A stretch of DNA of 64,000 bases, from the NCBI GenBank assembly GCA_049322915.1, contig JBMOPW010000020.1:224001-288000 (forward strand). The letters run 5' to 3'. Shown here piece by piece: positions 39,110-61,227 of this stretch. The notes beneath the pieces were generated by a model. It was not told where the DNA came from and searched no databases. It saw only the letters and a list, made by a program, of their open reading frames with translations. Numbering within the stretch: the first letter of the stretch is position 1; every line of letters starts with the position of its first letter. Position numbers and translations under genes: made by a program. The DNA comes from Candidatus Zhuqueibacterota bacterium. GTDB taxonomy: Bacteria; Zhuqueibacterota; Zhuqueibacteria; Thermofontimicrobiales; Thermofontimicrobiaceae.

Positions 39110-39275
39110 GAGAATACTTCAGCCGCCTGGCATTACTCTACATCAATCTCAAAGAAATCAGAACGAACATTGCCTAACCAATATCTGCCATCAGATAATT
39201 TTCGCTATTAATATACTACTTTTCTTCTAATAGCTAATTGGTTTCTAATAAAAGCAACAAATCATTTCCAATTCA

Positions 39276-40094
39276 TTATGGAATAATATTTACTGCAATC
39301 TCTGATATACGAGACACAACATTCCTACTGTTTATTACAACAAATTCTATTGTATGTACACCAAGAAAGGGTTCGGGCACATAATTTCGGGAGGCGATAA
39401 ATGTAAACACATTCTCAGGATCGCTCTCGACATTGAATAAGCCAAAAAGATATTGATATTCCAATGATTCATTCCGAGGATCAATTGCATTTACGGTTAT
39501 TTTTATAGATTCTCCCTCTTTCAAACTATTTTTACTTAACGTAATCGAATTTATTTTTGGAAGTGTGATAGAATTTTCAATTGATATGTATGACTCTTCT
39601 TCCAATATGTCAGCATCAATTGCTTTGGCTAAATCTATTACTTTTCCATAACTGCGAGAGTTAATTCTAAAGAGAGCATTTCTCCGAATAAACAAAATAT
39701 CTGCTACGTTGGTAGAATCCGGATTTGGTGACGACCACCATAATTCATCCCCGATAGATACTCCCTGTATTGGACCTTCCTGCATAATCCCGCTAATACT
39801 TTTCAAATATGCCAGGGCAGTTTTTACTGCATCTTCATGTGATTGATATATTCCTACAGTTAGAAATACAGATACCTGGTTATCAGATTTCTGATAAACG
39901 AATTCCCTGCCTCGATTCCACTGAGCGCGTTTTCTTATAAATTCAAACTCTGGTAGATATTTTTTTGCTATGCCTTCTACGCCAATTTTGGTAATAAATG
40001 TTTCATCATCTTTTGGATTAAAAATACCCTCGCAAAATAGAAAGAAGTATGGAAGTGTTAAGAAAAAAACGAAAAGGAACTGTTTAATTCTCAT
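39276..40094 (-). CDS. Hypothetical exported (probable lipo)protein with a C-terminal Ig-like segment
   Basis: 272-aa ORF in AT-rich DNA; hydrophobic leader ending in FLFC; GGAG RBS. Confidence 0.7.
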   Translation of the reverse strand: MRIKQFLFVFFLTLPYFFLFCEGIFNPKDDETFITKIGVEGIAKKYLPEFEFIRKRAQWNRGREFVYQKSDNQVSVFLTVGIYQSHEDAVKTALAYLKSISGIMQEGPIQGVSIGDELWWSSPNPDSTNVADILFIRRNALFRINSRSYGKVIDLAKAIDADILEEESYISIENSITLPKINSITLSKNSLKEGESIKITVNAIDPRNESLEYQYLFGLFNVESDPENVFTFIASRNYVPEPFLGVHTIEFVVINSRNVVSRISEIAVNIIP

Positions 40095-40152
40095 ATTAAT
40101 TTTCTCCTTACAAAAGAAAAAAAGAACAAAGTCAAGCTATTGCATGTGTACA

Positions 40153-40503
40153 TCAAGGAGTTTTTAAAGTTCGTCCATCATTTATCCAATTTCCCTTTTC
40201 ATCCACATTGATTACAAAAACATAAAGTAATCCTTCTGAATATCCCTCACATTGAATTGTATATTCCATTTCATGAACTCTGATTTCGAAAGTATCATCG
40301 ATCATTGAGTTCAAATCCCAGTAAGTCCTGCATGTCTTTTTGATTTGGTTATAAACTTCGGAATCAAGCCAGTTGATTTCCGGGAAAACGAATCCCTCAG
40401 AAATCTGAGTGATGCTTTTTTCATTCTGACAAGAAAAGAAAAATAGATAGATTAAAATAAAAAATATATTGGATTTTAGTATTATCATTCTCATTTTTCT
40501 CAC
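40153..40503 (-). CDS. Small hypothetical lipoprotein
   Basis: Leader ending in FFSC; GGAG upstream. Confidence 0.65.
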   Translation of the reverse strand: MRKMRMIILKSNIFFILIYLFFFSCQNEKSITQISEGFVFPEINWLDSEVYNQIKKTCRTYWDLNSMIDDTFEIRVHEMEYTIQCEGYSEGLLYVFVINVDEKGNWINDGRTLKTP

Positions 40504-40626
40504 TCCTATCAGTCAGTTATATAAATAATTGCAATGTAAATAATAATAAAGTTTTTTCAGCTTTAATAATGGTGTTGAAGATTTACCTTGCCACTAACGA
40601 TTGCGCTTCAAATGAAGTGTCAAAAG

Positions 40627-41148
40627 TTATTTACTTAACGAATCAATCCTGCTGGCGATCTCGGCTGCGGTCTCGATTAAAATGTTCGGAACCTCTTCAT
40701 AAGCAGGGTAATAATATGCTGTTTCGATTATTGTATTCCACTGATTTAGGAAAACAGCATTCGCAGGGCTTTTAGCCAGCCACCATTTCCCTTTGATCAA
40801 GTCATGTTTTTCGCCTTCTACCACCACTGTTGCAATATTGTTTTTTCGTAGCTCCATTGCCTCGATTGCATCGACTTGTGATTTGAATACAGAAACCGCA
40901 ATATTGTTTTTATCGCCACTGTACTGGACGCCTTCCAGGAATTCAGAATAGTCATTGAAGTAACTGTCAATAAAATCAGATGTATGCTTAAGGCTATCAT
41001 CACCCCAAAAATTACCTACTTCTGTCAAGGAAAGCAGAGGTAATTTTTGCGGATCAAAAAACTCTTCATTGTGTGCTGATGGTTCTTTTTCACAATTAAA
41101 AAAAGCCAGACAGGTTATAATAATAAGCATTTTGCATATTTTGAACAC
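40627..41148 (-). CDS. Hypothetical lipoprotein
   Basis: Leader ending in FFNC-EKEP; 173 aa. Confidence 0.7.
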   Translation of the reverse strand: MFKICKMLIIITCLAFFNCEKEPSAHNEEFFDPQKLPLLSLTEVGNFWGDDSLKHTSDFIDSYFNDYSEFLEGVQYSGDKNNIAVSVFKSQVDAIEAMELRKNNIATVVVEGEKHDLIKGKWWLAKSPANAVFLNQWNTIIETAYYYPAYEEVPNILIETAAEIASRIDSLSK

Positions 41149-41622
41149 TCAAAATTGGATCAGCGTTTTGAATTCCTTCCAATGAAATGAATGAATAAAA
41201 ATCAACCAATAGTTAAAAACTGCTCTCATCTTTTGTAAATTTTTAAATACGTTCACAAATCCGCGCAGACTTTCAAATATGCTATTGTCAAAGTAATCGC
41301 ATTCAAACGTGCAGCTCCCCAGTTTTCCTGGAAACCTGTCCGCACAAGAATTCTTCGGCTCTTGTTGGTCTTTCAAATGATAATTTATACCAATAAATGA
41401 TAGAAGTCAAACGATATTTTATTTATTGAAAAAAAATATTGCGTCCCGGTAATTGAGTCGAACACTCTGCTAACAACATTTAAACCTGGATAAAGTTTCC
41501 GGAACAAATTTTCTGCAAAATCGTTTGATTGTGCATATTATTCGCTTTCGTCCAAATATACTATGGAAAACGATTGGAATAGACGAACAATGTGAGCAAC
41601 ATGTATTGAAAAGGAATCAGCA

Positions 41623-42690
41623 ATGAAATTAGGTTTGATTGGATTACAGAATTCAGGCAAAACGACCATCTTCAACGCGCTCAGCAACTCCAGGGCAGAG
41701 GTGACCGCATTTTCAAGCGGCAAGGCCGAACCGAACCTGGCCGTGGTGGATGTGGGCGACGAGCGTATCGATAAATTATCCGAGCTTTATTCCCCGAAGA
41801 AAACCACGTACGCCACGGTGGAACTTGTGGATTTTGCAGGCATGACCGAGGGCGCGGCCAAAAACGGAAGCTTCTCGGCGGAGTTGATGGCGCTCATCAA
41901 AAATATGGATGCGCTGGCGCTTGTCGTGCGGAATTTCACAGACAGCCTGGGCGACGATCCTGAACCACTCGAGGATATTGAACGTGTCAACACAGAATTG
42001 ATCCTTTCCGATCTGGTTCTGGTAGAGACACGGCTTGAGCGAATTGAGGCCAATTACGCAAAAAATAAAAAAACAGTAGGCTTGCAACTTGAGGAAAAAA
42101 TTCTCCGCAGAATTTTAGAGCAATTGAATGACAACAAACCAATACGCAATCTCGAATTGAGCGAGGAGGAGGAAAAGAACATTCGAGGATTTCAGTTTCT
42201 CACAAAAAAGCCGTTTCTGGTCATCCTGAACTCGGATGAAACCAGGTTTGGCAAGAATGAAAAACTGATTGCTGCCATTCAGGAACAATACAACACCATC
42301 GAATTTGCCGGCAATTTCGAGATGGAGCTTGCGCAACTGAGTCCCGAAGATGCGGCCCTTTTCATGCAGGACATGGGCATACGGCAATCGGCCAGGACGC
42401 GGCTCACCGGTTTTCTGTACAGCATTTTGGGCTACATCAGTTTTTTTACGGTTGGCTCCGACGAGGTTCGGGCGTGGAGCATCCGCAAAGGACAAACCGC
42501 AGTGGAAGCAGCCGGCGTTATTCATACCGACCTGACACGCGGCTTCATTCGCGCAGAATGTTTTTCTTACAATGATCTTATCAAATATGGCTCGGAGAAA
42601 GCAGTGAAAGAAAAAGGATTGTTTCGCCTGGAGGGCAAAGATTACATCGTGAAAGATGGGGATGCCCTGAGTATTCGGTTTAACGTATGA
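41623..42690 (+). CDS. ychF: Redox-regulated ATPase YchF (Obg family)
   Basis: GLQNSGKTTIFNAL, LVDFAG, FFTVGSDEVRAW, IHTD, GFIRAE and RLEGKDYIVKDGD..FNV. Confidence 0.95.
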   Translation: MKLGLIGLQNSGKTTIFNALSNSRAEVTAFSSGKAEPNLAVVDVGDERIDKLSELYSPKKTTYATVELVDFAGMTEGAAKNGSFSAELMALIKNMDALALVVRNFTDSLGDDPEPLEDIERVNTELILSDLVLVETRLERIEANYAKNKKTVGLQLEEKILRRILEQLNDNKPIRNLELSEEEEKNIRGFQFLTKKPFLVILNSDETRFGKNEKLIAAIQEQYNTIEFAGNFEMELAQLSPEDAALFMQDMGIRQSARTRLTGFLYSILGYISFFTVGSDEVRAWSIRKGQTAVEAAGVIHTDLTRGFIRAECFSYNDLIKYGSEKAVKEKGLFRLEGKDYIVKDGDALSIRFNV

Positions 42691-43356
42691 TATGCATTTG
42701 GGAATGATGTGAGCCAGCGACTGACGCGTCACGAATCCTCTGACGCGATAGAGAGAACGATCCAATGCCATCTTCTTCTTTTACCTTTATGTTAATCTTC
42801 AGCCTGTTGCAGCAGAATCGCCTTCCAATGATAGTCGATGATAATGAAACAACACCCTGCCTGGAATCAATCCACGCTTTCCTCTGTCACCCTCAAGGAT
42901 GTGAATAATCCCTGTATTCCCAAATTGGATTTAACCCTACTATGTCACATAGATTTTTTATCGTTGTATATTGTATTTTTGATAGATGAAAAACTCAACA
43001 TATTGTGATAAATTTACTAAATGACGTTGTAGGGTTAATCAACATGCGCTAACGGGCTAATTTCGTAAATGACTTGGAAGGCAATGCCCGTGTGCGTCTC
43101 CGGCATATTAATGCATGGTATGTGAGTGGCGTTGAGGCTGTATCAAAAATCATTTTCGATAACTCGACTTTACTAAATTTTGATTTCAAGCAATCATCGC
43201 ATCTTGTATTCAACTCCTGGATTCGGATGAGATTAATCTTTTCCCGGCAGTCGTTAAATCATGATATCTGGAAAAATTCAGAAAAGTGCCTCAGGTCACA
43301 CGGCGATTCTGTTAAAATGTTAAATTTAATTCAGAAAATTGAAGCCCACTCAACTT

Positions 43357-43430
43357 AGTAACCAGAGACTGAATCAATATAAATATTGCCCCCCAACATT
43401 TAATTGAAGGTCTCTGGTTACTTTTTTTTT
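43357..43430 (+). terminator. Long stem-loop followed by a T-run (terminator, possibly the 3' end of an sRNA)
   Basis: AGTAACCAGAGAC (43357-43369) / GTCTCTGGTTACT (43410-43422) perfect 13-bp stem plus poly-T. Confidence 0.6.
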
Positions 43431-43614
43431 ATCCGCTCTCTGTTCATGCAACTGAAAATTTATCCCCCCCATCAATTAATACCACATGGGCGACGTCACT
43501 CAGCCAGCGAATTTCCAGATTTTACATTCACCAAAGATGTAGAAATTTTCTCTTGATTTTTATCCAAAATTTTCTACATTGAATTAATTTATTTGAAAGC
43601 ACAAAGGGCGAGTT

Positions 43615-44241
43615 ATGAAAAAGAATGGTGTAATACTGGCTTCGATACTTGCGATGATGATCGCATGCGCTGGTTCAGTGAGCATGTTGCCTGCGCCGCT
43701 GGACTCGAAAAACCTGCTCATAGGCGCGCTCATCTTCGATGTGAATGGCTACAATGATACGTTTGAATCAGTGCGCAAGCAAATCGAAGTTGCCATCGTC
43801 GGCAATGTGATTGAAAATGGCGAGATGAAGAGCTACGGCCAATGGGCGGTCACAGACGAGAATGGCTATTTTTTTTTGGCCAATGTACCGGATGGTGAAT
43901 ATGTGATAAAGGGCTTCAGGATTCACTCCATTGGTGCCGATAATCTAACTATTAGCAATGACTTGATTAATCCAAGGGAAGATTATTACGAGTTGCAGGA
44001 CGAGGATATCATTTATTTGCAGGCTGCCTATTTCGACACACAATCGAACCGGCGAATTGTGAATTTTAAGCATCATGTTTTTACGCTGCATTCCAATGAA
44101 TTTATCAAACATGAGCAATACGATGAATTGCGCGAAGTGAAGCTGTCAACAGGTGAACTTGTCAGTGAACCCCCTGTTCCGCAATATTTTCTCAATAAAT
44201 TTCCCGCGAATCCCTGGGCGCCATTTTTGGAGTTAGAGTAG
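43615..44241 (+). CDS. Hypothetical lipoprotein with a carboxypeptidase-regulatory-like beta-sandwich motif
   Basis: Lipobox IAC; TDENGYFFLANVPDGEYVI. Confidence 0.7.
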   Translation: MKKNGVILASILAMMIACAGSVSMLPAPLDSKNLLIGALIFDVNGYNDTFESVRKQIEVAIVGNVIENGEMKSYGQWAVTDENGYFFLANVPDGEYVIKGFRIHSIGADNLTISNDLINPREDYYELQDEDIIYLQAAYFDTQSNRRIVNFKHHVFTLHSNEFIKHEQYDELREVKLSTGELVSEPPVPQYFLNKFPANPWAPFLELE

Positions 44242-44425
44242 CAGTAATGCAATTCTGTGGGATGTCCGGGTGGGCTTGGAATGATGGTGTGTGCCCGGGA
44301 ATAGTCATGCTACCACTTACCGTATATTTCCACTCCGTGCAATGATTATTATTTTCAAATCATTCCTGAATAAATTTTAATGTGCTGATACATCCGATAA
44401 CCGCTAATGATTGGGAATACTGGCC

Positions 44426-47400
44426 ATGCAAGATGTTACAACCGTGAGATACAGCAATTTTCTGAAAGAGCAATCAGCGTTGAAACGAGTTTCGGAGCAA
44501 CGCAACGCCACTGAGCTTCTGTACCAGAGCGAGAAATTTCAATCAAATACTCCAGTCCAGAGTCTGCCTGGTTGGACGGAATTGCGGCAGAAGCTTTCCG
44601 AGGCATCCGTCATTTTCTTTCCCAATGATGTGCAGCAGCAGACCTACACTGCGGATACCGGCACCCATATTGTCCCGTCCATCTTCAAGCGAATGCTGGT
44701 GAAAATCAAGTTGTCCTTTGTATTTCGTCCCGGCTGTGTCGAAGATTTGAGCGTATTTGTGAAATGGGCGTATGAAAACAAGATTCATTACACCATTCGC
44801 GGCGCAGGCACCTGGCCGTTTGGGGGCTGTGTGCCCATCAACGGGGATGTTGTGGTTGATCTTTCTTACCTTGATTTTATGCACGTGGATGAGCGCGAGG
44901 GGATTTTCACATTCGGGGCCGGCGTCGTTTTCCCCAAGGCCAGGAAATTTTTACAGGAGCGGGAATTCACGTTAAAGCAGGAAATCACCAATCCTGGCAG
45001 CGGCACCATTGCCGGCTGGTTGGCGACCGGCGGCATTGGACTCGGCAGCTACAAATACGGGCATGTCTCCAATTCCGTGCGCGCGCTGCTGGTCATTACC
45101 CCTGCGGGCGAATGCATCACCGTGGATCGGGACGACGCCAACTTCACCAGCTATTTCGGCAGCGAAGGCCAGTTCGGCATTATCGCCGGCGCATCCATGG
45201 AGGTGCGACGGGAATCCTACGTCACCAAGCCGTACGCGTTTTCCTTTACAAAATTCGAAGATGCGGTGCAGTTCATCCACATGCTTGAAAAAGCGCAACT
45301 GAAGCCCACTTCGGTCATTTACTTCAGCGACACCTACATTGCCGAGACGTATAAAATCGAGAAGCGCCACGTCGAAGAGCGACTGAATGAAGCGCTGGAC
45401 AATAACGACCAGACGCGTTTGCGCGAGACGCGCGAAGACCGCGATACCATCGAGGCGATGAAGCAGTACCAGCATGTCGTCGTCATCCATTTTGATGAAA
45501 ACAGCGATTACCAATTCGCTTTGAAGTCGCGCCTGTTTGGCAAGAGCGGCGAATTGCGCCGCGCGAGTCATATCAGCTATTTGCAACTGCCCACTGACCT
45601 GGCGCATATATTCTGGGATCACCGATTTCTGCCGGTGCAGCTTAAAGTCAACGGGCCGACTGTCCTTGTGAGTGAATTCGTGTTGCCGTTGGCGGCGTTT
45701 TCGAATTTTCAAAACACGCTGCAAAAGGTGCTGGCTCGCTTGCTGAATATCGAGTTGAAGTCGGAAGCGCATCTTCTTCAAGACGGCGAAGTGTTGACGC
45801 AAGCCATGTTCCTGGCTGACACGCGGACGTTTCGGCACAAGCTCTATTTTTCGCTAATTCCGCTGATGACGCAGGTCGGCTATTATTTTGGCGCCAGGCC
45901 GTACGGGATCGGTCTGTGGAATTATCCCTCATTGAGGCGGTGGCGAAGCGTGAACCGGGAGAAGGCCGATGCCATGATGGCGTTCAAAAAGGAATCGGAT
46001 CCGCGCGGTCACATCAACCAGGGTAAATTCATCAATCCCCGGCGGCAGACGTTGGCGTTCAAGCTGTTCAAAATTATCACTCCCCGTTTCAACCAATGGT
46101 TCGTCGCCACCTACGATAAACGGATTCAGCAGAAAAAATTCGTCCTCACCTTCCCATTTCAGAAGTTGGTGTGGAATATCACCCGATTCATTTTCCCGCG
46201 AATGGTGCCGCCGGGGTTGAAAGCCGGAGAGCATGAACCCATCGAACGGATGATTTCAGTTTGCGCCGAATGCGACTCGTGCGAACGGGTCTGTCCGACT
46301 TCGGATGTGTTCGGACTTTACGGCCCGGCCACGCCGATCACCCGCCGCCGCACAGCGCAGCGCTTGATTGCCGGAGAGAAAATCAGTCGGAATGAGGCGC
46401 TGGGATTCCTCGCCTGCACCCGCTGCGACAATTGCACCGACATTTGTCCAACCAACATCAACCTCACGCAGGTGTTCGATCTGGTGGAAATGAATCCAAA
46501 GTTCAACGCCCAGTTGAATTTCAGGAACGGTGAAAAGAAGGAGTATATCGATCGGTTCTGGCAGATCATGAAAGAGAGTCCGCTGTACATCGAACATACG
46601 CTGGCCGTTCAGAAAGAAGAGAAATCGCATCTGGCTCACGGGCTGAAAATTCTGTACGACAAAGGATTTGCCTACAGCGAATTGTACATCGATCCGACCA
46701 CCTGTATCCATTGCGGCATGTGCAGCAACGAAAACGCCTGCATGTACGCTGCCAGAGAAAGCCAGCCACGTCAGATTCCTGAACTGCGCCACATCAACTG
46801 CGCGCTGTGCAATGCCTGCGTTAATTTCTGTCCCCAGAACAAAATCATGGAGCGCACCCGGCTGTATTTCGATAAATTGATCCATCATGCCGTTGATCTG
46901 GAAGAGAAACGCTACTGGACCAAACAGCAGGCGCGGGTGCACGATACAACCACGGTGCAGCGGTCCACGCTGCTCACAGAAATGGCCGACCGCTACGTGA
47001 CGGAAGAAATTATCATGGAAATTGATAAAGAGGCGTCCACCGGCAAAATCCCGGTTTCAGGATCGGGTCAGGGCGACCGGCACATGGGCATCGGCTTCGA
47101 CGCCGAGCGGTTCGCTCATTTTCACATCGTGGGGCCGGCGCAAAACCGTCTGCACGAGGGCGATCCGGCAGAGGAACTGGCGGTGATTCTGGGCAAGCGG
47201 GAAGATTTCTGCAAGTTTGACCGGGATGGCAATCTGGTGAATCCCGTGCATGCCAATATCAAATTGATGACGCCGATTTTATACAACGCCATCCCGCTGG
47301 AGAGCAACGGCAATGTGGAACTGGTTCTCATCAAAGTGGCGGAACAGCAGAAAAGCCTTGTGGTGATTCAATTGGAGCGGCTGCTGGAACACCATCAGGA

Positions 47401-50400
47401 AATCCTGAAAAATGGCGGGTATGCGCGCCTGCCCCAGGTGATTGTTCCGAGGGTGGGCAGCGATCTGATCAATCTGCTGACTGTCCACCAAAACACGAGC
47501 CGCGATTTCATCACAGATCTGTGGCGCATGCCGGTGTTCGAGGTGGAATACCATCCGGACATCGAGCAGACCATCAGCTACATCCGCGGTTGCGTCGCCA
47601 GCAGCGAGAAAGTGCGGGCGCTGATCAGCGGGTATCTGGAAATTTCCGAGTACGACCTCATCGGCTCACTGAGTCTGACAGCGGATATCAAAGAGAAAGT
47701 GAACCACTTCCTCGACCAGAAAGTGGATATAGTGCACATCCGCGGGCTGAGAAATAAAGACGAGTACTTTGTAACGTCCCGCGCAGTTCGCGCGCTGCAT
47801 CATTATCTGATGCGAATTGGCCGGCGGCATGAAGTGAGCATCATTGCATCGGGCGGAATACGGCTGGCATCGGACACGCAAAAGACAATTCAGCGCGGGG
47901 CTGAGGCCACGTTGATCGATTTCGCGGCACTGTTGGCGCTGGATCCTTCGACCTATCGCGCAATGATTGAGAATAAATCCACCACGGAAAAATTATTGAG
48001 CCTGGATGTGGATTGGGCAGTGAAAAGGCTGCTCAACCAGGCTGAATCGCGCAAAGTGCAAATCCTTGAAGTGCTGGGCGCTGCCGGGTTCAAAGACCTG
48101 AAAAAGACGGTGGGCGAGGAAGGACGGCTCATCGATTTTCACAAACTGGAGAACAGAATTCAGCGGACGATTTTCGAAAATGAGCAACTCGTGGATGAGT
48201 ATTCGACCTGTAACGAGCAACTCATCAAAAATGAAACCATCCCGGAAACGCAGGTGCGCAGCTACAGCGTCCTGAAGACGAAACTGGCGCCCATGCCGGC
48301 GCCGCACGATTTTTACAATCTCGGCGAAGTGAATCAGGTGCTGTACAAACGCGATTTTGTCTGGCCCGGGGCATTGATCGAATCCATGGGACGTATGGCA
48401 GCCGGGGACATGTCCATGCTCGATTTCAACAACGTGAAAAAGACCGGCCTGCTTGGCGATGGATTCGACGTCATGCGCATTTTGTACAACAAAGACCCGA
48501 TGGATATTCACGAATCTGAATTGAACCAGATCTCCACTTCCTTGCTGCTGGACAAAGGCCTGATCCTCGAAGCGCCGTGGATGTTCGGTGGCAAATCCAT
48601 CGGCTCCATCGGACTGGACACGTGGAAAGCGCACGTCACAGCGTCGCGGGAATTGGGCATTCAGTTCGACACCGGCGAGGGGGGCTATCCCACCAGCTTT
48701 TTCCTGAATTCGAAAGGCGAGCCGCTGTTCTTCACGGAGAATGAAATTCAACTCATCAAATCCTATTTCGAATCGGGCAGTGATTACACCATCGAGCAGA
48801 TACAAAAGACGCTGGCAGAGAAGAAGATCACCGAAGAAAGCCATCCGGAATTGTACAAAAAACTGAAGCAATTTCCCTCGCTCAAGCCCTTCCGGTTTCT
48901 CGTCATCGTCGATGAACAGGACCAGCCGTTCGTTTCGACTGAATTGAAAACCGGGCTGTTTGGCGTCACCAAGACTACGATTCAGAAAGCGCGGCGCGTG
49001 GTGATTGCCTACAGTCAGGGCGCCAAGATGGGCATCGGCGGACACATCCTTGCGCAGAAGGTGAATAAACTGGTTTCGTACATGCGGGGGGTGGAAGGCA
49101 TCGAATACACCCACGCCGAGAAAGTGGAGCAGTTGTACCAGAAATTACAAAAAATCGCCTCGAAAAATGACCATCCGCTCCATGAACTGGCTGTTGCCAA
49201 TCTGGACATTTTCAACGCTATGGAAGACCAGCGGACTGCAACCGAAGCGTTCAAAAATGCGCTGTGGCAGATTCAGGAATATGCCTATAATCTCCATGCC
49301 CGCAATGCGATTGATCCCATCGAATTCAAAAACATCCTGCAATTGTGCGAGGAGATCATCGACTACTCTTACAGCAGCATCATTTCGCCGTTCCCGTTTC
49401 ACAATTGTTATTCCATTGAAGATGTGAAAGCGTTCATCGATGTCGTGCGAATGATCAATCCGGAGGCGGTCATTGCCATCAAAGTGTCGCCGTCCATTGA
49501 TATCGAATTCATTGCCACCGGACTGGGACGCATTGCGCGCGACAATACCGACGAAATTTTAGCCGCCAGATTCAACAAAACTCAGGCCGGATCGGACCCG
49601 TTGTCCGTCGAGATGGCCGAATATACCCGGAAATACGGAATGAAAATTGAAATCTGGCTGGATGGACCGCGCGGCGGCACCGGCGCGTCGCCCAATATCA
49701 TCAAAGGTCAAATGGGCATGCATCTGGAATACGCCATTCCGCTGATTCACTATCGGCTTGTTAAAGACGGGCTGCGGAATTATGTCAAATTTATAGTCTC
49801 CGGCGGGATACGAACCTTTGAAGATGTGATCAAGGCTGTCGCCCTGGGCGCTGATGGTGTGGTCTGGGGAACGGCTCCGCTGGTGGCCATTGGCTGCGAC
49901 CGAAACCGGAACTGTCACGACGGCTGTTCGCGCGGCATTGCCACGAGCAATTTGAAGCTGCAACAACTGCGCGATGTGGCGGTTAACACGCAGCAAATCA
50001 TCAACGCGTTCACCATGATTCAGATGCAATGTATCCGCGCCATTGCCGCGCTGGGATTTTCCGACATCCGCGAGCTGCGCGGCCGGTTCGACAAAATTCA
50101 TTGGCTGGGTCTCAAAGAACGGGTGGATCACCGCTATCGGGTGCGCGCTGAAGTGATTAAAGAGATTGAGAAGGACGAGCAGCTATTCGAGCAGCGCATG
50201 GCTCGCGCGACTGGCCAGAGCAATTGCGGCGTGGCGGCCATTAACGGCACGACGGCAATTCCCGGCTATATACTCGACCAGACGCTGCAATCGATGCGGA
50301 ACCGCGGCATGGATGGCGTTGGCATTGCCAAAACGCTCTGTTTCCCGGACCATCCGAATGAATACGCCTATCGCATCCTGGTGAAGGGTCGGCTGCACCG

Positions 50401-53077
50401 GGATATTGAATTTGAGCTGAGAAAATCGCAGGACGGAAAGAATGAGGCGATGGATGAAAATGAACTGCGGACGCTCGCCCGCGAAAGAACCGTCGCCCTG
50501 CGAATCAGCCTGATGCGCAAAATCAAGTCGATTTATCTCGATCCCTATTTCGATTATTTCGGCCAGGACGATGTGACACGGTGTCGCGAGCCGTACAAAG
50601 TCAACGAGCAGAGCGCAGAGAGGGACTATCGGGAGTTTGGAAATGCCAATACTGATCCCGGCGATGTCTTTCGTTTCTTCGTACGGGTGAAACCGGCGGC
50701 GCTGTACCATTTCATCGAAAATGAACTGCTCCGCGGCGGCAAGCCGCGATTGCTGGAGCACCTGTTCCCGGAGATAACGCCGAATAATTACCGGCAGAAC
50801 GAGACTTTTCTGAACAAGGCAGAGGATTTGTTCATCCTGCAGCACTCGCACAATGTGACGCGGATTCTCTATGTGTCGTCGGTGCTGCCTGATGAATTGG
50901 AAAAGTTCGCCGGCAAGAAGATCGGTCTGAAGCGCATTTCCGAAGCCGATGAGGAATACATTCTGGCGGATGTCCGCGATGAGGATTGCTCCGATTATCT
51001 TAAACTGCTGCGTGATTTCATGCTAGCCCATCCGTTTGAACATCACAAGCATCGCTACGGGGTGCGTAATCATAAAATCGCGGCGGTGATGTCGTGCGGG
51101 AAGAATTTCGCCGTGTGGAAGACAGCCGGCCGCGAAATACCTTGGCAGACGCCGGACGCTCCCAACAATATCATTCACGTGCGATTGGCCACCGGCTCGG
51201 TGGTCGAGCAGATGAATTCGCACCCGTTCGCCAAACTGCACACCGCGCTGACTCACAACGGCGAGACCACCAATTACGAGGCGCTGAAGCAGCGCGTGGA
51301 GCAATTCAATCTATCGCCATTGGCCAGCACCGATACGGAGGTGGCTTCGTTGAAATTTCATCTCACCGCCGATGAATGGGAATACCCGGACTGGGCGTTG
51401 TTCGAAAGTTTCTCGCCTACCACCGGCGATGATTTGCAATTGGTGGACGAAAAGATCAGGCCGCAGTTGGAGCAGGTGCAGCGTGTGGAATTCACCAGTT
51501 CCCCGGATGGCCCGTATCAATACCTGTGCCTGCGCCACAATCCCTACACCCGGGTGACCGAGCGCGTGGATTTGAAAGACCCGGCGGACCTGCGTCCCAA
51601 TGTGACCGCATTCTGGAGCGATCAATCCAACGGCCAACGGCGCGTCTTCAGCATCATCGCTTCGGAAGAACAGGCCATCAACACCATGCTGCGACTGCTG
51701 GATAAAGAGGGCATCATTCAGGGGAGCGTTGCAGATTTGACCTTTGTGAACGCCGGCATGATCAGCCGCTATTGGTACGACGAAGCCAATCGGATCACGG
51801 ATTTCCGTTTCGTCGACCGCTACGGTCGCGCCATTCAACTGGAAAATAGCGGCATGCATCACAGTGTGCGCCAGGGAAAACCGTTGCCGACGCAGGGAAA
51901 AGACACCCATGCTGGCTGGCAGAATCGCTATCAGCAGTTTTTCAGGGACAATCTGGCTGCCATGACGTTCGATGAGTTCCGCTGGCTGCTGCATCAGCAG
52001 TCCAACGAAAACGCGGACAATGCCGCCTTTGCGCGCACCCTGGAAATTTTCACCTGGCTTCGCGATTATCTTCGCACGCTGAATCCCGGAGAAAAGGCGC
52101 AGAGTTCGCTCATCGACATCACGCAGTATTACATCGACGCGCTGCTGGATAGGGCGAAGGAATCGGTTTACAGCAATTATGTCTGGTGCAGCCGGGAGTC
52201 GGCATTGCAATTCAACACGCGGGCTGGCGAGGGCCAGACACTGGTGATCAATGCCGGGAAATTTCTGCCGGAGGGCACAGACCCGGCAGTCTCGCTGACC
52301 GCATTTCTGTCAAAAGCCCACCGCCTGGGCTGGCGCAAATTCATCCTGTACAATACAACAGGTCAGCGGCTCATTTCAACGGCGGCGCTGCACGGAGGTG
52401 ATTCGGACGATGTGGTCATGGATGTGTACGGCTCTGTCGGCGAATACTTTGGCGCGTTCATGCAGGGCGGCATTCTGCGATTGCACGGCAACGCACAGAA
52501 CTTCGCCGCCATGTGCATGCATCACGGCGAATTGTACATTTTTGGCAATGCCGGCAAAGTGTGCGGCTACGCATCCAAAGGCGGCAAGGTCGTTGTTCTC
52601 GGCAATGTCGTGGATCGCTGCTGGACCAACTCGGTGAACGATTCGCGCTGTCAGGATCTGGACGTGATGATTTTGGGTTCCGCGACAAAGTACGCCGGCG
52701 AGTCTCTCATGGGCGGTAAATTTTTCTTTGCCGGACTTCATTTCGATGTGAAAGGCAATTTATGCTTCAACGAGCGGCCCTACCTGGGCACGAAAATGCT
52801 CGGCGGCGCTTCACGCGGCGATTTCATTTTCTTCGATCCTGAAAATCGGCTCATCCACGCGCAGTACGTCCACGGCGCAGAGAAGCAGTTCACCATTGAG
52901 GAATGGCAGGCGTTCAAAGAAAAAGCCAAATCGGTCTTTCGTCTGTCCAATATCCCCATCCACGAGGCCGACGGCGTCGAATCCATTCAGGTGGGTGATC
53001 GCCGATACGACCTCATCCCGGCGCACTTCAAATTTATCGTTCCCAGAGGCGGACTCCGCGGCTATGAGTCCCATTGA
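44426..53077 (+). CDS. Giant multidomain flavo-iron-sulfur protein: FAD-binding (GlcD/D-LDH-like) + 4Fe-4S domains + two glutamate-synthase FMN barrels + class II glutamine amidotransferase + GXGXG domain
   Basis: RGAGT..GG, TIAGWLATGGIG and GSEGQFGII; four CxxCxxC motifs; DTGEGG, SQGAKMGIGGH, SPFPFHNCYSIED, DGPRGGTGA, SGGIR and CDRNRNCHDGC; CGVAAI, RGMDGVG, HVRLAT, SHPF, HNGE and TDTEV; GSVGEYFGAFMQGG. Start at ATG 44426 or TTG 44411. Confidence 0.9.
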   Translation: MQDVTTVRYSNFLKEQSALKRVSEQRNATELLYQSEKFQSNTPVQSLPGWTELRQKLSEASVIFFPNDVQQQTYTADTGTHIVPSIFKRMLVKIKLSFVFRPGCVEDLSVFVKWAYENKIHYTIRGAGTWPFGGCVPINGDVVVDLSYLDFMHVDEREGIFTFGAGVVFPKARKFLQEREFTLKQEITNPGSGTIAGWLATGGIGLGSYKYGHVSNSVRALLVITPAGECITVDRDDANFTSYFGSEGQFGIIAGASMEVRRESYVTKPYAFSFTKFEDAVQFIHMLEKAQLKPTSVIYFSDTYIAETYKIEKRHVEERLNEALDNNDQTRLRETREDRDTIEAMKQYQHVVVIHFDENSDYQFALKSRLFGKSGELRRASHISYLQLPTDLAHIFWDHRFLPVQLKVNGPTVLVSEFVLPLAAFSNFQNTLQKVLARLLNIELKSEAHLLQDGEVLTQAMFLADTRTFRHKLYFSLIPLMTQVGYYFGARPYGIGLWNYPSLRRWRSVNREKADAMMAFKKESDPRGHINQGKFINPRRQTLAFKLFKIITPRFNQWFVATYDKRIQQKKFVLTFPFQKLVWNITRFIFPRMVPPGLKAGEHEPIERMISVCAECDSCERVCPTSDVFGLYGPATPITRRRTAQRLIAGEKISRNEALGFLACTRCDNCTDICPTNINLTQVFDLVEMNPKFNAQLNFRNGEKKEYIDRFWQIMKESPLYIEHTLAVQKEEKSHLAHGLKILYDKGFAYSELYIDPTTCIHCGMCSNENACMYAARESQPRQIPELRHINCALCNACVNFCPQNKIMERTRLYFDKLIHHAVDLEEKRYWTKQQARVHDTTTVQRSTLLTEMADRYVTEEIIMEIDKEASTGKIPVSGSGQGDRHMGIGFDAERFAHFHIVGPAQNRLHEGDPAEELAVILGKREDFCKFDRDGNLVNPVHANIKLMTPILYNAIPLESNGNVELVLIKVAEQQKSLVVIQLERLLEHHQEILKNGGYARLPQVIVPRVGSDLINLLTVHQNTSRDFITDLWRMPVFEVEYHPDIEQTISYIRGCVASSEKVRALISGYLEISEYDLIGSLSLTADIKEKVNHFLDQKVDIVHIRGLRNKDEYFVTSRAVRALHHYLMRIGRRHEVSIIASGGIRLASDTQKTIQRGAEATLIDFAALLALDPSTYRAMIENKSTTEKLLSLDVDWAVKRLLNQAESRKVQILEVLGAAGFKDLKKTVGEEGRLIDFHKLENRIQRTIFENEQLVDEYSTCNEQLIKNETIPETQVRSYSVLKTKLAPMPAPHDFYNLGEVNQVLYKRDFVWPGALIESMGRMAAGDMSMLDFNNVKKTGLLGDGFDVMRILYNKDPMDIHESELNQISTSLLLDKGLILEAPWMFGGKSIGSIGLDTWKAHVTASRELGIQFDTGEGGYPTSFFLNSKGEPLFFTENEIQLIKSYFESGSDYTIEQIQKTLAEKKITEESHPELYKKLKQFPSLKPFRFLVIVDEQDQPFVSTELKTGLFGVTKTTIQKARRVVIAYSQGAKMGIGGHILAQKVNKLVSYMRGVEGIEYTHAEKVEQLYQKLQKIASKNDHPLHELAVANLDIFNAMEDQRTATEAFKNALWQIQEYAYNLHARNAIDPIEFKNILQLCEEIIDYSYSSIISPFPFHNCYSIEDVKAFIDVVRMINPEAVIAIKVSPSIDIEFIATGLGRIARDNTDEILAARFNKTQAGSDPLSVEMAEYTRKYGMKIEIWLDGPRGGTGASPNIIKGQMGMHLEYAIPLIHYRLVKDGLRNYVKFIVSGGIRTFEDVIKAVALGADGVVWGTAPLVAIGCDRNRNCHDGCSRGIATSNLKLQQLRDVAVNTQQIINAFTMIQMQCIRAIAALGFSDIRELRGRFDKIHWLGLKERVDHRYRVRAEVIKEIEKDEQLFEQRMARATGQSNCGVAAINGTTAIPGYILDQTLQSMRNRGMDGVGIAKTLCFPDHPNEYAYRILVKGRLHRDIEFELRKSQDGKNEAMDENELRTLARERTVALRISLMRKIKSIYLDPYFDYFGQDDVTRCREPYKVNEQSAERDYREFGNANTDPGDVFRFFVRVKPAALYHFIENELLRGGKPRLLEHLFPEITPNNYRQNETFLNKAEDLFILQHSHNVTRILYVSSVLPDELEKFAGKKIGLKRISEADEEYILADVRDEDCSDYLKLLRDFMLAHPFEHHKHRYGVRNHKIAAVMSCGKNFAVWKTAGREIPWQTPDAPNNIIHVRLATGSVVEQMNSHPFAKLHTALTHNGETTNYEALKQRVEQFNLSPLASTDTEVASLKFHLTADEWEYPDWALFESFSPTTGDDLQLVDEKIRPQLEQVQRVEFTSSPDGPYQYLCLRHNPYTRVTERVDLKDPADLRPNVTAFWSDQSNGQRRVFSIIASEEQAINTMLRLLDKEGIIQGSVADLTFVNAGMISRYWYDEANRITDFRFVDRYGRAIQLENSGMHHSVRQGKPLPTQGKDTHAGWQNRYQQFFRDNLAAMTFDEFRWLLHQQSNENADNAAFARTLEIFTWLRDYLRTLNPGEKAQSSLIDITQYYIDALLDRAKESVYSNYVWCSRESALQFNTRAGEGQTLVINAGKFLPEGTDPAVSLTAFLSKAHRLGWRKFILYNTTGQRLISTAALHGGDSDDVVMDVYGSVGEYFGAFMQGGILRLHGNAQNFAAMCMHHGELYIFGNAGKVCGYASKGGKVVVLGNVVDRCWTNSVNDSRCQDLDVMILGSATKYAGESLMGGKFFFAGLHFDVKGNLCFNERPYLGTKMLGGASRGDFIFFDPENRLIHAQYVHGAEKQFTIEEWQAFKEKAKSVFRLSNIPIHEADGVESIQVGDRRYDLIPAHFKFIVPRGGLRGYESH

Positions 53078-53147
53078 GATGAACTAAATGCACCCTGCGG
53101 GGTTAAATTATCAGATTAAAATCGACAGACCTCGCAGGTGCCCATTT

Positions 53148-54593
53148 ATGAAAATGACTATCCCGTCAAATATTTCTTTTCTCAAGTACAGCATTCGCAC
53201 GCGACTGATCCTCCTTTTTTTCCTTTCCACCATCATGATTTTTGCTTCCGCCGGCTATTACCTGAACTGGCAGATTCGCGCGACGCTGGACCATGCGCTC
53301 AGTCAAAATGTCGAGGCGATTGCCTCCACGTTTGCCGGGCAAATCGACCCGGGGCTGATCGTTCACATCCAGCCCGGCGACGAAAATTCCCGCACCTATC
53401 GGCATGTGCTGCAGCAGTTCGATCAATTCAAGCGGGTGAAAGGCATCTCCCGGATCTACCTGTTTTTAGCCGATGGCGCCAGTCTTGTCGATTCCGATTC
53501 AACCGTGCGAATTGGCCAGAGATACGCGCAACTGAATTACAGTCAGCAGGAAATGCAGGAGGTATTCTCCGGGCGCACGGCCAGTTCGGTTCTCTTTGCC
53601 GGCGTTGGTGGGCGATTGTACAAGTCCGGGTTCGCTCCCATCTGGCACGGCGACAGAGTACTGGCCGGAATCGCCGTCGAAGCCAGCGCGGAAATGCTGG
53701 AGGCGGTCGACGCCATTCGGAACGATCTGCTGATTCTGGGAGTGGCTGTTGCCATCGGCGCCATTTTCGTCGGCGCTATTTTTGCAAACCGCATCACCAC
53801 GCCGCTGAAGAAATTGCAGCACGCTTCGGAGAAAATAAGTCAGGGCTATTTCTTTCAGCCAATTCCTGATTGCGGCCGGGACGAGGTTGGATTTCTCAGC
53901 AGCACCATGGAACAGATGCGCCAGAATATTTTGATTCGGGATAAGCGCCAGCAGGCCATGCTCGCCGGCGTTGCCCATGAAATTCGGAATCCGCTGGGCG
54001 GCATTGAACTCTGCGCCGGGCTGCTGACCAATGACATCGAAAATCACGGATTGAAAAAATACGCCCAGAAAATCCTCGTGGAAGTGCAGCATCTCAAGTC
54101 CATCATTCAGGGATTTCTGGATTACGCCCGACCCAATCCGGCGGCAAAGCAGTGGACCGACATCCGAGCCGTCTGGGACGAAGTGCAATTTTTGCTGGCC
54201 GGCGAAATGAATGCGGTGACGGTGAGTTTCACGCGCGCGCGCGATGCGGCAACCCTGTTCGTCGATCCCCTGCATCTCAAACAGATATTTTTGAACCTGC
54301 TGAAAAATTCACTGATAGCGGTTGGAACCGATGGAACGATTTTTGTTGAAATACACCGGGCCAACGACGACGTCGAGATCATTTTTTCTGATACCGGCCC
54401 GGGAATACCGGCCGAATTGCAAAGCCAGATTTTCGAGCCATTTTTCACGACGCGCGAAAAGGGCACCGGCCTGGGACTGGCTGTGGTGAAAAATCTCGTG
54501 GAGGAAAATGGGGGCGTGATTCGCTATCAGGAAGGCGAAGGGGGAGGAGCTTGTTTTGTCATCACGTTTCCAATTGAGCTGATGAGAAGATGA
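53148..54593 (+). CDS. Membrane sensor histidine kinase (HAMP-HisKA-HATPase)
   Basis: AGVAHEIRNPLG, NLLKNS, DTGPGI and FEPFFTTREKGTGLGL; two TM segments. Start uncertain (53088, 53148 or 53154). Confidence 0.93.
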   Translation: MKMTIPSNISFLKYSIRTRLILLFFLSTIMIFASAGYYLNWQIRATLDHALSQNVEAIASTFAGQIDPGLIVHIQPGDENSRTYRHVLQQFDQFKRVKGISRIYLFLADGASLVDSDSTVRIGQRYAQLNYSQQEMQEVFSGRTASSVLFAGVGGRLYKSGFAPIWHGDRVLAGIAVEASAEMLEAVDAIRNDLLILGVAVAIGAIFVGAIFANRITTPLKKLQHASEKISQGYFFQPIPDCGRDEVGFLSSTMEQMRQNILIRDKRQQAMLAGVAHEIRNPLGGIELCAGLLTNDIENHGLKKYAQKILVEVQHLKSIIQGFLDYARPNPAAKQWTDIRAVWDEVQFLLAGEMNAVTVSFTRARDAATLFVDPLHLKQIFLNLLKNSLIAVGTDGTIFVEIHRANDDVEIIFSDTGPGIPAELQSQIFEPFFTTREKGTGLGLAVVKNLVEENGGVIRYQEGEGGGACFVITFPIELMRR

Positions 54594-54999: not shown

Positions 55000-56382
55000 G
55001 TGCCCGAAATATTGATCGTCGAAGATAACGCCACCATGCGCGAGGCCATGGTTGCCATTGTGGAGCGAATGGGCTATTCCTGCGATCAGGCAGAAAACGG
55101 TCGCGTGGCCCTGGAGCGGTTGGCCGCTAACGCGTATGAGTTTGTCGTGAGCGACTATAAAATGGAAGGCAAAAACGGGCTGGAAATTTTGAACCATATC
55201 AAGGGTACCACCCCGGCGACGGAGGTTCTCATCATCACTGCCTACGGGACAATTGAATTGGCCGTGGACGTGATGAAAGCCGGGGCAGCCGATTTCATCA
55301 CCAAGCCGTTTTCCCACGATGAATTCAGGATGAAGGTGGAGCGCATTTTTCAGCGAATCCAGGAACGAAAAGAGCTGTCCCGCATTTCCGATGAAAATGC
55401 CTACCTGCGTCAGGAACTTGACGAGCAGTTCAATTACGGCGATATCATCGGACAGTCCGACGCCATGCGCAAAGTGTACCAGACCATCGACAAAGTGGCT
55501 CAGACAGATTCGTCGGTGCTGATTTATGGCGAGAGTGGGACCGGGAAGGAATTGGTCGCCCGCGCCATTCACAAAGCCAGCCCGCGGAAGAATAAACCGT
55601 TTGTACGGGTCAATTGCGGCGCGCTGGCCGAGACGTTGCTGGAATCGGAATTGTTCGGTCACGAGCGGGGCGCGTTCTCCGGCGCCATCAAGAGGAAAAA
55701 AGGCCGGTTCGAACTGGCCGATGGCGGCAGTATTTTTCTCGATGAAATCGGGGACATCTCGGCCAACATGCAGTTGAAATTGCTGCGTGTGCTGCAAGAG
55801 AAGGAGTTTGAACGGGTCGGCAGCGAAGAGACAATTCAGGTGGATGTTCGTATTCTCGCTGCGACAAATAAAAACCTTTCGGACCTGGTTCAGCAGGGGA
55901 CGTTCCGCGAAGATCTGTATTACCGGCTGCATATCATTCCCATTTATCTCCCGGCGTTGCGCGAGCGGACGAGCGACATCCCCATCCTGATTGATTTTTT
56001 CCTCGCCAGATTCAGGTCAGAATTCAAGCGACAGCATATCAGCATCAGCCGGGATGCTGTTGAAAAACTTGTGAGCTACCGCTGGCCCGGCAATGTGCGG
56101 GAACTGGAAAACGTCATCGAGCGCGCATTTGTCCTCTGCGATGGCGACGCCATTCGGAGCAGCGATTTGCCGATTCTCACTTCGGAAGAGTCGCACAAAT
56201 TGCCGGCGGATCTGCTGGATCGGTTCCAGCTCAATCTGAACGACACGCTGTACGCGGTTGAAAAGCACCTGCTGGAACGGGCGATGCAGCAGAGCGACGG
56301 GAATAAATCCCAGGCCGCCAAAATTTTAGGCATTAAAACGAATCTGCTGTATTATAAATTAGAAAAATTTGGAATGATTTGA
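55000..56382 (+). CDS. Sigma-54-dependent response regulator (receiver-AAA+-Fis HTH)
   Basis: ILIVED, GESGTGKE, GAFSGA, FLDEIG, FREDLYYRL, WPGNVRELEN and GNKSQAAKILGI. Confidence 0.95.
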   Translation: MPEILIVEDNATMREAMVAIVERMGYSCDQAENGRVALERLAANAYEFVVSDYKMEGKNGLEILNHIKGTTPATEVLIITAYGTIELAVDVMKAGAADFITKPFSHDEFRMKVERIFQRIQERKELSRISDENAYLRQELDEQFNYGDIIGQSDAMRKVYQTIDKVAQTDSSVLIYGESGTGKELVARAIHKASPRKNKPFVRVNCGALAETLLESELFGHERGAFSGAIKRKKGRFELADGGSIFLDEIGDISANMQLKLLRVLQEKEFERVGSEETIQVDVRILAATNKNLSDLVQQGTFREDLYYRLHIIPIYLPALRERTSDIPILIDFFLARFRSEFKRQHISISRDAVEKLVSYRWPGNVRELENVIERAFVLCDGDAIRSSDLPILTSEESHKLPADLLDRFQLNLNDTLYAVEKHLLERAMQQSDGNKSQAAKILGIKTNLLYYKLEKFGMI

Positions 56383-58654: not shown

Positions 58655-58733
58655 TTTAACGAACAACAACAGTCCCAGTGGGATGTGTTGAAGAAAAGCA
58701 ATGAATCATTCGCTTCGAAAAGTGAGGTTCACT

Positions 58734-61202: not shown

Positions 61203-61227
61203 ATTTTAAACGGAAAGGTGAACGACC

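Follow-up and report, generated by a model that had tools for sequence, protein, structure and literature searches.

A conserved giant gene of uncultured bacteria may encode a self-contained glutamate synthase with a fused FAD/iron-sulfur module

A gene of 2888 codons was analyzed in a 64,000-nucleotide stretch of DNA (the window) from Candidatus Zhuqueibacterota bacterium (assembly GCA_049322915.1, contig JBMOPW010000020.1, forward-strand positions 224,001 to 288,000). With moderate confidence, we read it as encoding a self-contained glutamine:2-oxoglutarate amidotransferase (GOGAT, or glutamate synthase). One chain would unite all subunits of a split, archaeal-style enzyme, in the order of their operon, and a flavin adenine dinucleotide (FAD)/Fe-S module would replace GltD. 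Pfam, run on the whole protein and on six overlapping pieces, gave the domain order FAD module, Fer4A, Fer4B, barrel 1, barrel 2, glutamine amidotransferase (GATase) and GXGXG beta-helix within the open reading frame (ORF; Table 1). A preliminary description, made from the sequence without database searches, had listed these parts in one uninterrupted ORF. Its list is borne out by the Pfam domains and by conserved motifs, with DPRGHINQGK starting at residue 530, CDRNRNCHDGC at residue 1829 and the Cys groups at residues 618, 669, 765 and 797. The first ATG (44426) would give a 2883-residue form, which matches protein database entry P0003.

The continuity of the frame was confirmed from several directions. 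An independently assembled Logan contig covers positions 44300-53200 in one piece at a depth of 71.6, with 0 differences and 0 gaps; its run (X1) is a biofilm metagenome and may be the same sample as the source genome. A one-genome-per-species scan returned 195 stretches encoding a relative, of which 53 loci were retained, all of them records of metagenome-assembled genomes (KSB1, Calditrichota, Gemmatimonadota, Vulcanimicrobiota and others). Thirty loci matched both query ends, after exclusion of 22 cut by contig ends and of L027, a near-duplicate of L026. The frame is single and open in 28 of these 30 loci, the exceptions being L034, with a plain frameshift, and L045, which contains N. In addition, a protein search found 214 relatives, 120 of them listed. 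Among those listed, 72 have 2786-2992 residues, at least 95% query coverage and 53-100% identity, 35 belong to a ~2530-residue form (39-44% identity) that has the same parts and differs solely in shorter loops, and 13 are shorter and mostly labelled partial. Their database names are merely 'FAD-binding protein' or 'glutamate synthase-related protein'. Mean column identity in the aligned homologues is 57-75%, with hundreds of invariant positions. No support was found for an assembly chimera or a decaying pseudogene; the G+C content of the gene (0.50-0.57) does exceed that of the 4 kb upstream (0.34-0.48). Given the spanning contig, the intact loci in other genomes, the full-length relatives and the column conservation, such an origin is vanishingly improbable and is ruled out for practical purposes. 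The giant gene is a conserved type in uncultured bacteria and is so far known from these alone.

Table 1. Features of the giant gene and its downstream neighbours (window coordinates), with layouts of three split relatives
Feature	Position	Strand	Basis
Whole ORF, 2888 codons from TTG	44411..53077	+	Stop at 53075-53077; no internal stop
FAD_binding_4 (PCMH-type FAD domain), aa 103-238	44717..45124	+	Pfam 9e-26
Cap/substrate domain (FAD-oxidase_C-like), aa ~275-540, ends DPRGHINQGK	45233..46030	+	Pfam sub-threshold, AF2/Foldseek
Fer4A, 2x[4Fe-4S], Fer4_8 / GlcF-HdrC kind, aa 616-683	46256..46459	+	Pfam Fer4_8 7.5e-11
Fer4B, 2x[4Fe-4S], ferredoxin-type, aa 759-811	46685..46843	+	Pfam Fer4_21 1.1e-8
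Barrel 1, TIM-barrel paralogue of synthase barrel, aa ~850-1260	46958..48190	+	Profile and sequence comparison
Barrel 2, glutamate synthase FMN/synthase domain, aa ~1380-1900	48548..50110	+	Pfam Glu_synthase 213.2 bits vs 20.4
Three-Cys cluster site C1829-x5-C1835-x3-C1839 (CDRNRNCHDGC)	49895..49927	+	Alignment to GltB three-Cys motif
Cys1939 codon, predicted Ntn nucleophile; predicted self-cleavage N1938/C1939	50225..50227	+	'CGVAA' 25/25
Class II (Ntn) glutamine amidotransferase, aa 1939-~2480	50225..51850	+	Pfam GATase_6 4e-8 (aa 2252-2311)
GXGXG beta-helix, aa ~2560-2888	52088..53074	+	Pfam GXGXG, FwdC-type matches
Histidine kinase (HAMP-HisKA-HATPase_c)	53088..54593	+	11 nt downstream of giant ORF
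Sigma-54-dependent response regulator (NtrC family architecture)	55000..56382	+	After kinase gene
Split layout L073: 1197 aa (FAD-cap-Fer4-Fer4-barrel 1), 489 aa (Fer4 + Glu_synthase, 317 bits), 456 aa glutamine synthetase, 847 aa (GATase-GXGXG)			Pfam
Split layout L077: 584, 433, 497 and 815 aa			Pfam
Split layout L084: 734, 995 and 868 aa			Pfam

From barrel 2 onward, the protein carries features of a glutamate synthase. The Glu_synthase match of barrel 2 reaches residue 1883 and has an E-value of 3e-59 when scanned as a piece, and comparison with the flavin mononucleotide (FMN) domain of GltB (2vdc_A / 1ea0_A; 7e-29) aligned the motifs QGAK-G-GG, ISP-P-H--YSIED and GGTGASP. Furthermore, C1829, C1835 and C1839 align with the three-Cys motif in the FMN domain of GltB, which we take to provide the ligands of its [3Fe-4S] cluster, and do not vary among the 25 aligned homologues, in line with the earlier reading of CDRNRNCHDGC as a 3Fe-4S-type motif. 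The GATase motifs, namely CGVAA at residue 1939, 'HVRLATGS' (HxRLATGS), 'HNGETTN' and 'TDTEVA' (TDT), were likewise conserved in all 25, and the domain is matched by the GlmS/PurF NCBIfam models. The GXGXG match (residues 2661-2772) exceeds its cut-off of 32.5 bits when scanned as a piece (34.9 bits) and lies just under it in the whole protein (30.7 bits).

The Fe-S domains between the FAD module and the barrels show a similar degree of conservation. Fer4A contributes C618/621/624/628 and C669/672/675/679, and Fer4B contributes C765/768/771/777 and C797/800/803/807. All 16 of these residues are invariant in the 25 aligned homologues, confirming the two pairs of CxxCxxC motifs noticed earlier, and together with the three in barrel 2 they bring the conserved cluster Cys of the protein to 19. 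Fer4_8 is the kind of domain that follows GlcD-type flavoproteins, and Fer4B forms the N-terminus of the barrel-1 subunit in the split relatives.

The FAD module groups by sequence and fold with LctD, D-LDH, D2HGDH, GlcD and alkyl-DHAP synthase (ADPS). FAD_binding_4 scored 90.6 bits against a cut-off of 26.4, and a sequence comparison with the PDB matched LctD (7qh2_C, 1.2e-16). The AlphaFold2 (AF2) model of the module has a mean predicted local distance difference test score (pLDDT) of 75.9 and matched LctD, mouse D-LDH and ADPS in Foldseek, with TM(target) of 0.56-0.80. The stretch 'RGAGTWPFGG' lacks the His for covalent FAD. The cap domain departs from its relatives: FAD-oxidase_C (residues 275-442) remained under its cut-off (15.6 vs 21.2 bits) and was recorded for some relatives, and 'RPYGIGLWN' stands at the position of 'GEHGIG' in GlcD-type paralogues. 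The motifs 'H-x-GDGN-x-H' and 'GEHG(I/V)G', presumably the metal and substrate ligand motifs of D-LDH and D2HGDH, are kept in four of five other aligned FAD_binding_4 ORFs of the same genome, whereas in the giant protein and in six of six stand-alone relatives both are replaced, with a 3-residue deletion and 'PYG(I/L)G(I/L)WN'. Moreover, the equivalog scores are 55.2 bits against a cut-off of 567.9 for glcD (TIGR00387) and 27.5 against 1350 for YdiJ (NF049975). By its sequence, the FAD module is thus atypical within its GlcD/D-LDH relatives. Its FAD-binding glycines and cap residues are nevertheless invariant in the giant family (25/25 and 29/29). The same genome also carries an ordinary GlcD/GlcE/GlcF-like cluster (C14:539399-547676), with three FAD_binding_4 ORFs and a Fer4_8-type ORF; 'GDGN-H' and 'GEHGIG' are kept in two of these FAD ORFs.

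Residues 1-600, used as the query of an exhaustive search, gave 3288 relatives, of which 87 had E <= 1e-30. The sixteen scanned with Pfam included stand-alone FAD + Fer4_8 proteins of 610-750 residues from Methanocellales and Dehalococcoidales, FAD-Fer4-Fer4-barrel 1 proteins of ~1200 residues from Chloroflexota, and other giants of 2508-3152 residues, among them P0238, ordered GXGXG, FAD, Glu_synthase. The Protein Atlas returned generic 'FAD-binding PCMH-type' clusters and nothing else, mostly archaeal. FAD_binding_4, Glu_synthase and GXGXG are also combined in other orders in P0156 and P0207, as in P0238.

The origin of the domain order was evaluated in split relatives. A metagenome scan with one 1218-residue Chloroflexota protein returned 79 loci, which were annotated with hidden Markov models of the giant's seven parts. 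Wherever at least two parts were present they stood in the order of the giant, and no other order occurred among the 79 loci; the split order is FAD/Fer4A, Fer4B-barrel 1, Fer4-barrel 2 and GATase-GXGXG. In both loci scanned for it (L073 and L074), the gene between barrel 2 and GATase is a type I GlnA (487.8 and 547.7 bits vs 429.15, TIGR00653) that stays under the type III cut-off (320 and 373 bits vs 469.6). Because the split operons carry the same parts in the same order, the giant appears to be the fully fused form of a multi-subunit system, co-transcribed with glnA in some lineages. The preliminary description had called the synthase part permuted; end-to-end fusion of a split operon with the same gene order explains the arrangement better than a rearrangement of GltB. 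Of the 79 loci, 15 carry the FAD module: in L070-L074 it is fused to barrel 1, and in others (e.g. L077, L080, L084, L086 and L101) it is encoded by the gene immediately upstream. Across many lineages, the FAD/Fe-S module therefore recurs with the same synthase parts, fused to them or encoded directly upstream, and the arrangement is not always the same. Functional partners usually leave such a pattern in genomes, and a role in electron input fits it. The module probably supplies the electrons of the synthase.

Other combinations were seen around the same core. In L095, L107, L119 and L125, a core operon without the FAD module is followed by an ORF of ~1500 residues, which is a GltD/HdrA-like flavoprotein in both loci scanned (L095 and L107). 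L095 additionally encodes a CCG protein resembling HdrB, and MTHFR and DUF5981 genes lie on its flanks; MTHFR lies upstream in L079 and DUF5981 upstream in L091. The GltD/HdrA-like ORF could either provide an alternative module for electron input or connect the system with C1 metabolism. Since it adjoins the same core in loci that lack the FAD module, its presence suggests that this core can take one input module in place of another. A second giant type, with a weaker barrel-1 match, occurs in the same phylum in G022, G064, G100, G122 and G144 (2552-3337 residues in four, a 1341-residue open frame in G100).

No segment of the protein is better conserved than barrel 1, which has a mean column identity of 75%. 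Its homology to barrel 2 extends over the final ~136 columns (hhalign probability 97%, E 1e-10). Barrel 1 also gives a weak Pfam Glu_synthase match whose best stretch is residues 1125-1226 (2.2e-5), and keeps an 'SGGIR' phosphate-binding stretch as in FMN or IMP barrels. It has a deletion precisely where barrel 2 bears the cluster Cys. The preliminary description had named it an FMN barrel; it is indeed a barrel and paralogous to that of the synthase, but it lacks the cluster Cys and would be only a putative FMN binder. The barrel 1 profile found the 'GGIR' stretch of IMPDH as its sole match in the PDB, and a wide structure search with the barrel 1 model (VIA) returned generic TIM barrels, with DERA (Z 11.4) tied with the GltB FMN domain (Z 10.4). 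A function drawn from the barrel 1 structure was rejected, given the poor model and the generic TIM-barrel and IMPDH matches. For the central domain of GltB, a truncated alpha/beta barrel has been described, which may have arisen when the FMN barrel was duplicated (PMC8097209). Barrel 1 occupies the place of Glu_syn_central (PF04898), and by this analogy it fits the role of that domain.

The position of the amidotransferase within the chain was a point missed by the preliminary description: the catalytic Cys1939 is internal. Class II amidotransferases, members of the N-terminal nucleophile (Ntn) family, use the alpha-amino group of Cys1. Because Cys1939 is internal and a free alpha-amino group is needed, glutaminase activity is predicted to require cleavage of the polypeptide, and we infer autoproteolysis between N1938 and C1939. 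Ahead of the nucleophile lie a linker that varies in length and a (T/P)(G/A)(Q/P)(S/T)(N/D) stretch that is conserved. In addition, in each of six split loci the GATase-GXGXG gene encodes a leader ahead of 'GG/CGV', from 10 to ~50 residues depending on the start chosen, which suggests that leader removal is already part of this lineage. If this reading is true, the precursor would, to our knowledge, be the longest Ntn self-processing precursor, cut ~1938 residues from its N-terminus.

The genomic context was then assessed for a conventional source of electrons. No gltD-like gene lies within the window, as the preliminary description had noticed; the sole TIGR01317 match there is a 41-residue dinucleotide fold (E 5.4e-4) in an HI0933-like gene at ~37841. 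Neither does a GltD-like gene adjoin the giant gene in 31 relatives, and no conserved partner gene was found beyond the closest relatives, recurring neighbour clusters being generic kinase/regulator or secretion-tail domains. As neither was found, the putative enzyme looks self-contained. The genome itself (6.25 Mb, 96% complete) has one Gln-synt_C gene, situated on a different contig from the giant gene, and one large glutamate dehydrogenase-type gene; it has no second carrier of the GATase, GXGXG or barrel profiles of the giant and no other GltB-type gene. It encodes many ferredoxin-type proteins and five GltD-like ORFs, none of which reaches the GltD equivalog cut-off; the one on C14 is a NuoF-GltD fusion, and the others have 561-889 residues. 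The C14 cluster (C14:645000-662000, L015) comprises a NuoE-like protein, the 1021-residue NuoF + GltD-like fusion, a Fer2/Fer4 protein, a 525-residue weakly Glu_synthase-like FMN protein (47.8 bits), two ORFs without Pfam matches (584 and 490 residues) and a large NAD-specific glutamate dehydrogenase; the barrel profiles of the giant match nothing there.

The distribution of the gene was surveyed in a phylum sample of 151 genomes, which includes G000 as well as G088 and G144 (both flagged unpublished) and in which related genomes are not independent. A barrel-1 match was present in 22 genomes, as the giant proper in 17 and as a weaker match inside other giant ORFs in 5. The canonical Glu_syn_central match occurred in 73 of the 151, comprising 4 of the 22 barrel-1 genomes versus 69 of the 129 without a barrel-1 match, and it was absent from 13 of the 17 giant-bearing genomes. 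The giant and the canonical gene are thus seldom found together, a tendency and not a test because of this kinship.

Based on these observations, a mechanism can be proposed for the predicted enzyme. A two-electron donor would reduce the FAD, bound without a covalent link in the VAO/PCMH-type module at the N-terminus. From there, single electrons would reach the FMN of the synthase by way of four [4Fe-4S] clusters (first those of Fer4A, then those of Fer4B) and, in barrel 2, the three-Cys cluster. The amidotransferase domain would hydrolyse glutamine; the ammonia would move to barrel 2 and add to 2-oxoglutarate, and the resulting 2-iminoglutarate would be reduced to glutamate at the FMN site. 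Barrel 1 would stand in the structural place of the GltB central domain. Self-cleavage would yield a redox chain of ~1938 residues and an amidotransferase-GXGXG chain of ~950 residues, which would remain together. The direction of electron flow is inferred, like the cleavage and the role of barrel 1, and follows from the GlcD/GlcF-type layout (substrate, FAD, Fer4_8) and from the wire described for glutamate synthase (GltS), in which electrons pass from a flavin through two [4Fe-4S] clusters and a [3Fe-4S] cluster to FMN (PMC8097209). The preliminary description had proposed that an N-terminal module oxidizing an organic donor replaces GltD. Replacement agrees with the lack of GltD in the window and with the recurrence of the module beside synthase parts; a 2-hydroxyacid donor is not supported, the motifs of the GlcD-type paralogues being missing.

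Several observations weigh against this interpretation of the gene as a self-contained glutamate synthase. The curated GltB equivalog NF008730 gave 119.8 bits against a cut-off of 1047, and Glu_syn_central stayed under its cut-off as well (17.0 vs 22.8 bits). The spacing between the second and third cluster Cys is one residue shorter than in GltB, and the GATase domain is highly divergent, Pfam covering ~60 residues of it. The AF2 model of barrel 1 (29 sequences) is poor, with a mean pLDDT of 56 and the most conserved 92 residues unmodelled. We know of no precedent for an internal Ntn nucleophile behind ~1938 residues. No glnA adjoins the giant gene in the window, and 64 of the 79 core operons have no visible FAD module, although many of these loci are short and all stem from single-query patterns. 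Finally, no donor is nameable from the sequence of the FAD module, as the GlcD-type motifs are absent, and ferredoxin could reduce the Fer4 clusters directly.

The last two points bear on where the electrons come from. The same enzyme might oxidize a D-2-hydroxyacid (D-lactate, glycolate or D-2-hydroxyglutarate) at the FAD, and with 2-hydroxyglutarate the product would be the 2-oxoglutarate required at the synthase site; if this were true with D-2-hydroxyglutarate, the net reaction would be 2-hydroxyglutarate + glutamine to 2 glutamate. Such a donor agrees with the best sequence and fold matches (LctD, mouse D-LDH, D2HGDH and GlcD), with the His-less 'RGAGT', which points to non-covalent FAD as in the aligned GlcD-type ORFs, and with the succession of FAD_binding_4 and Fer4_8, which is the GlcD-GlcF / YdiJ layout. 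We nevertheless regard it as unlikely: both GlcD motifs are replaced in the giant and in all six stand-alone relatives, the glcD equivalog score is about a tenth of its cut-off, FAD-oxidase_C is sub-threshold, and ADPS and vanillyl-alcohol dehydrogenase fit the fold about equally well. The lactate, glycolate or 2-hydroxyglutarate named in the preliminary description was accordingly a guess and not an active-site inference. A bolder version, in which an organic acid is oxidized at a new VAO-fold site (Tyr in place of the Glu-His pair) and two electrons reach the FMN through five Fe-S clusters in one gene product, neither pyridine nucleotide nor ferredoxin being needed, is quite unlikely. Alternatively, reduced ferredoxin or another redox protein might dock at the Fer4 domains, with the FAD module serving a second reaction, an electron vent or regulation. 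The many related core operons without a FAD module, some of them also without Fer4 (L127), must use a soluble carrier, and many ferredoxin-type proteins are encoded in the genome of the giant gene; the invariance of the FAD module in the giant family, its recurrence with synthase parts in independent arrangements and the constant retention of its own Fer4_8 between it and the rest make this possibility improbable.

The nature of the reaction itself could also differ. The protein might be a related amide-transfer or reductive-amination enzyme acting on another gamma-glutamyl amide or 2-oxoacid, by analogy with N-methylglutamate synthase (MgsABC), which has the same three types of domain and in which MgsA, MgsB and MgsC match GltB domains 1, 3 and 2 and which is encoded in an operon with a glutamine-synthetase-like gene (PMC6237917). 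The score far under the GltB equivalog cut-off and the MTHFR genes adjoining some related core operons are in line with such a role. On the other side, the synthetases of L073 and L074 pass as type I GlnA and fail as type III, whereas the best hit of GmaS, the gamma-glutamylmethylamide synthetase that partners MgsABC, is a type III glutamate-ammonia ligase (PMC6237917). The 16 Fer4 Cys, the 3 cluster Cys and the FAD module argue for net electron input, and the genome would be left without any glutamate synthase. We consider a reaction other than glutamate synthesis to be of low probability, and a glutamate synthase fed through its FAD/Fe-S module is the interpretation retained here.

Compared with GltB/GltD of Azospirillum brasilense (PDB 1ea0, 2vdc and 6s6s), the giant shares the FMN barrel motifs, the three-Cys site, the Ntn amidotransferase, the GXGXG domain and a second barrel-like domain. 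The order of GltB is GATase-central-FMN-GXGXG, whereas that of the giant is FAD-FeS-barrel 1-barrel 2-GATase-GXGXG. Unlike GltB/GltD, the giant has no GltD or NAD(P)H domain, its FAD lies in a VAO/PCMH fold, it has four [4Fe-4S] sites instead of two, its nucleophile Cys is ~1938 residues from the N-terminus, and it falls under the cut-offs of the GltB models NF008730 and PF04898. In Archaea, individual GltS domains are separate ORFs (PMC8097209), and the closest split relatives of the giant similarly have a Fer4 + Glu_synthase subunit of ~490 residues and a separate amidotransferase part. Unlike in the archaeal-type split genes, GATase and GXGXG form one unit, the barrel-1 subunit is always present, and all parts are fused in the giant. 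In the control genomes of Thermotoga maritima and Methanocaldococcus jannaschii, PF01645 matches and PF04898 does not. The nearest published parallel found is, by analogy, FGltS(I/II) of methanogens, putative F420H2-dependent glutamate synthases proposed from genomic context only (PMC3448663). There, too, a synthase unit is teamed with a non-standard electron-input flavoprotein bearing extra [4Fe-4S] centres, although this flavoprotein is an FrhB/FdhB-type F420H2 dehydrogenase and not a VAO/PCMH-type FAD module.

Likenesses on the flavoprotein side are found in GlcD-GlcF, YdiJ and LctD of Ldh-EtfAB (7qh2), which have FAD_binding_4 and a cap, followed by a Fer4_8 dicluster as in GlcF/YdiJ-type proteins. 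The giant differs from them in lacking CCG domains and the His...His and Glu-His motifs, and its electrons would go to the synthase and not to quinone or ETF. In MgsABC, too, the amidotransferase, FMN and GXGXG domains are GltB-like, and a homologue of glutamine synthetase is encoded in the same operon; it consists of three small separate subunits (best hits of 300, 225 and 442 residues), no FAD or Fer4 domain is listed for it, and its redox cofactors are stated as not known (PMC6237917). Its partner GmaS is nearest to type III glutamine synthetases, whereas the split relatives of the giant carry type I. No description of an enzyme with this architecture was found in the literature covered, most subscription journals lying outside that coverage, and to this extent the earlier statement that none is characterized stands. 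The glutamate synthase core is known; the electron-input module, the domain order and the internal Ntn site are new.

The surroundings of the gene in the window were also inspected. The kinase and regulator genes downstream (Table 1) follow the giant gene only in L017 and L019, its two closest relatives, among the 53 loci searched, and no terminator-like site was found between the giant ORF and the kinase gene. Promoter and terminator scans did not rise above shuffled sequences (13 vs 9.4 +/- 3.0 and 18 vs 13.4 +/- 3.2), no sigma-54 -24/-12 element was seen by eye in 44242-44410, and no Rfam family reached its gathering score within the window. Upstream, 39000-44400 has a G+C content of 0.34-0.48, against 0.50-0.57 in the gene, and contains ORFs of 272, 173 and 208 residues with no Pfam match. 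Further downstream (58701-62454), a DUF3160 protein of 833 residues with a type IX secretion system sorting tail is followed by a bacterial serpin (408 residues; Serpin 401 bits).

Characterized glutamate synthases draw their electrons from NADPH, NADH or ferredoxin (PMC8097209, PMC3448663). If the interpretation is correct, a VAO-type flavoprotein with its own Fe-S wire replacing GltD would be a fourth way to feed the central reaction of ammonium assimilation, and KSB1, Calditrichota and related uncultured bacteria would have their nitrogen assimilation tied to a further donor. Metabolic reconstructions that look for gltBD only would wrongly score 13 of the 17 giant-bearing genomes in the 151-genome sample as lacking GOGAT. 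Moreover, the family, with its fused, split, FAD-fed and Hdr/GltD-adjacent forms, opens the questions of how exchangeable the input modules are and whether an Ntn amidotransferase can mature from an internal position.

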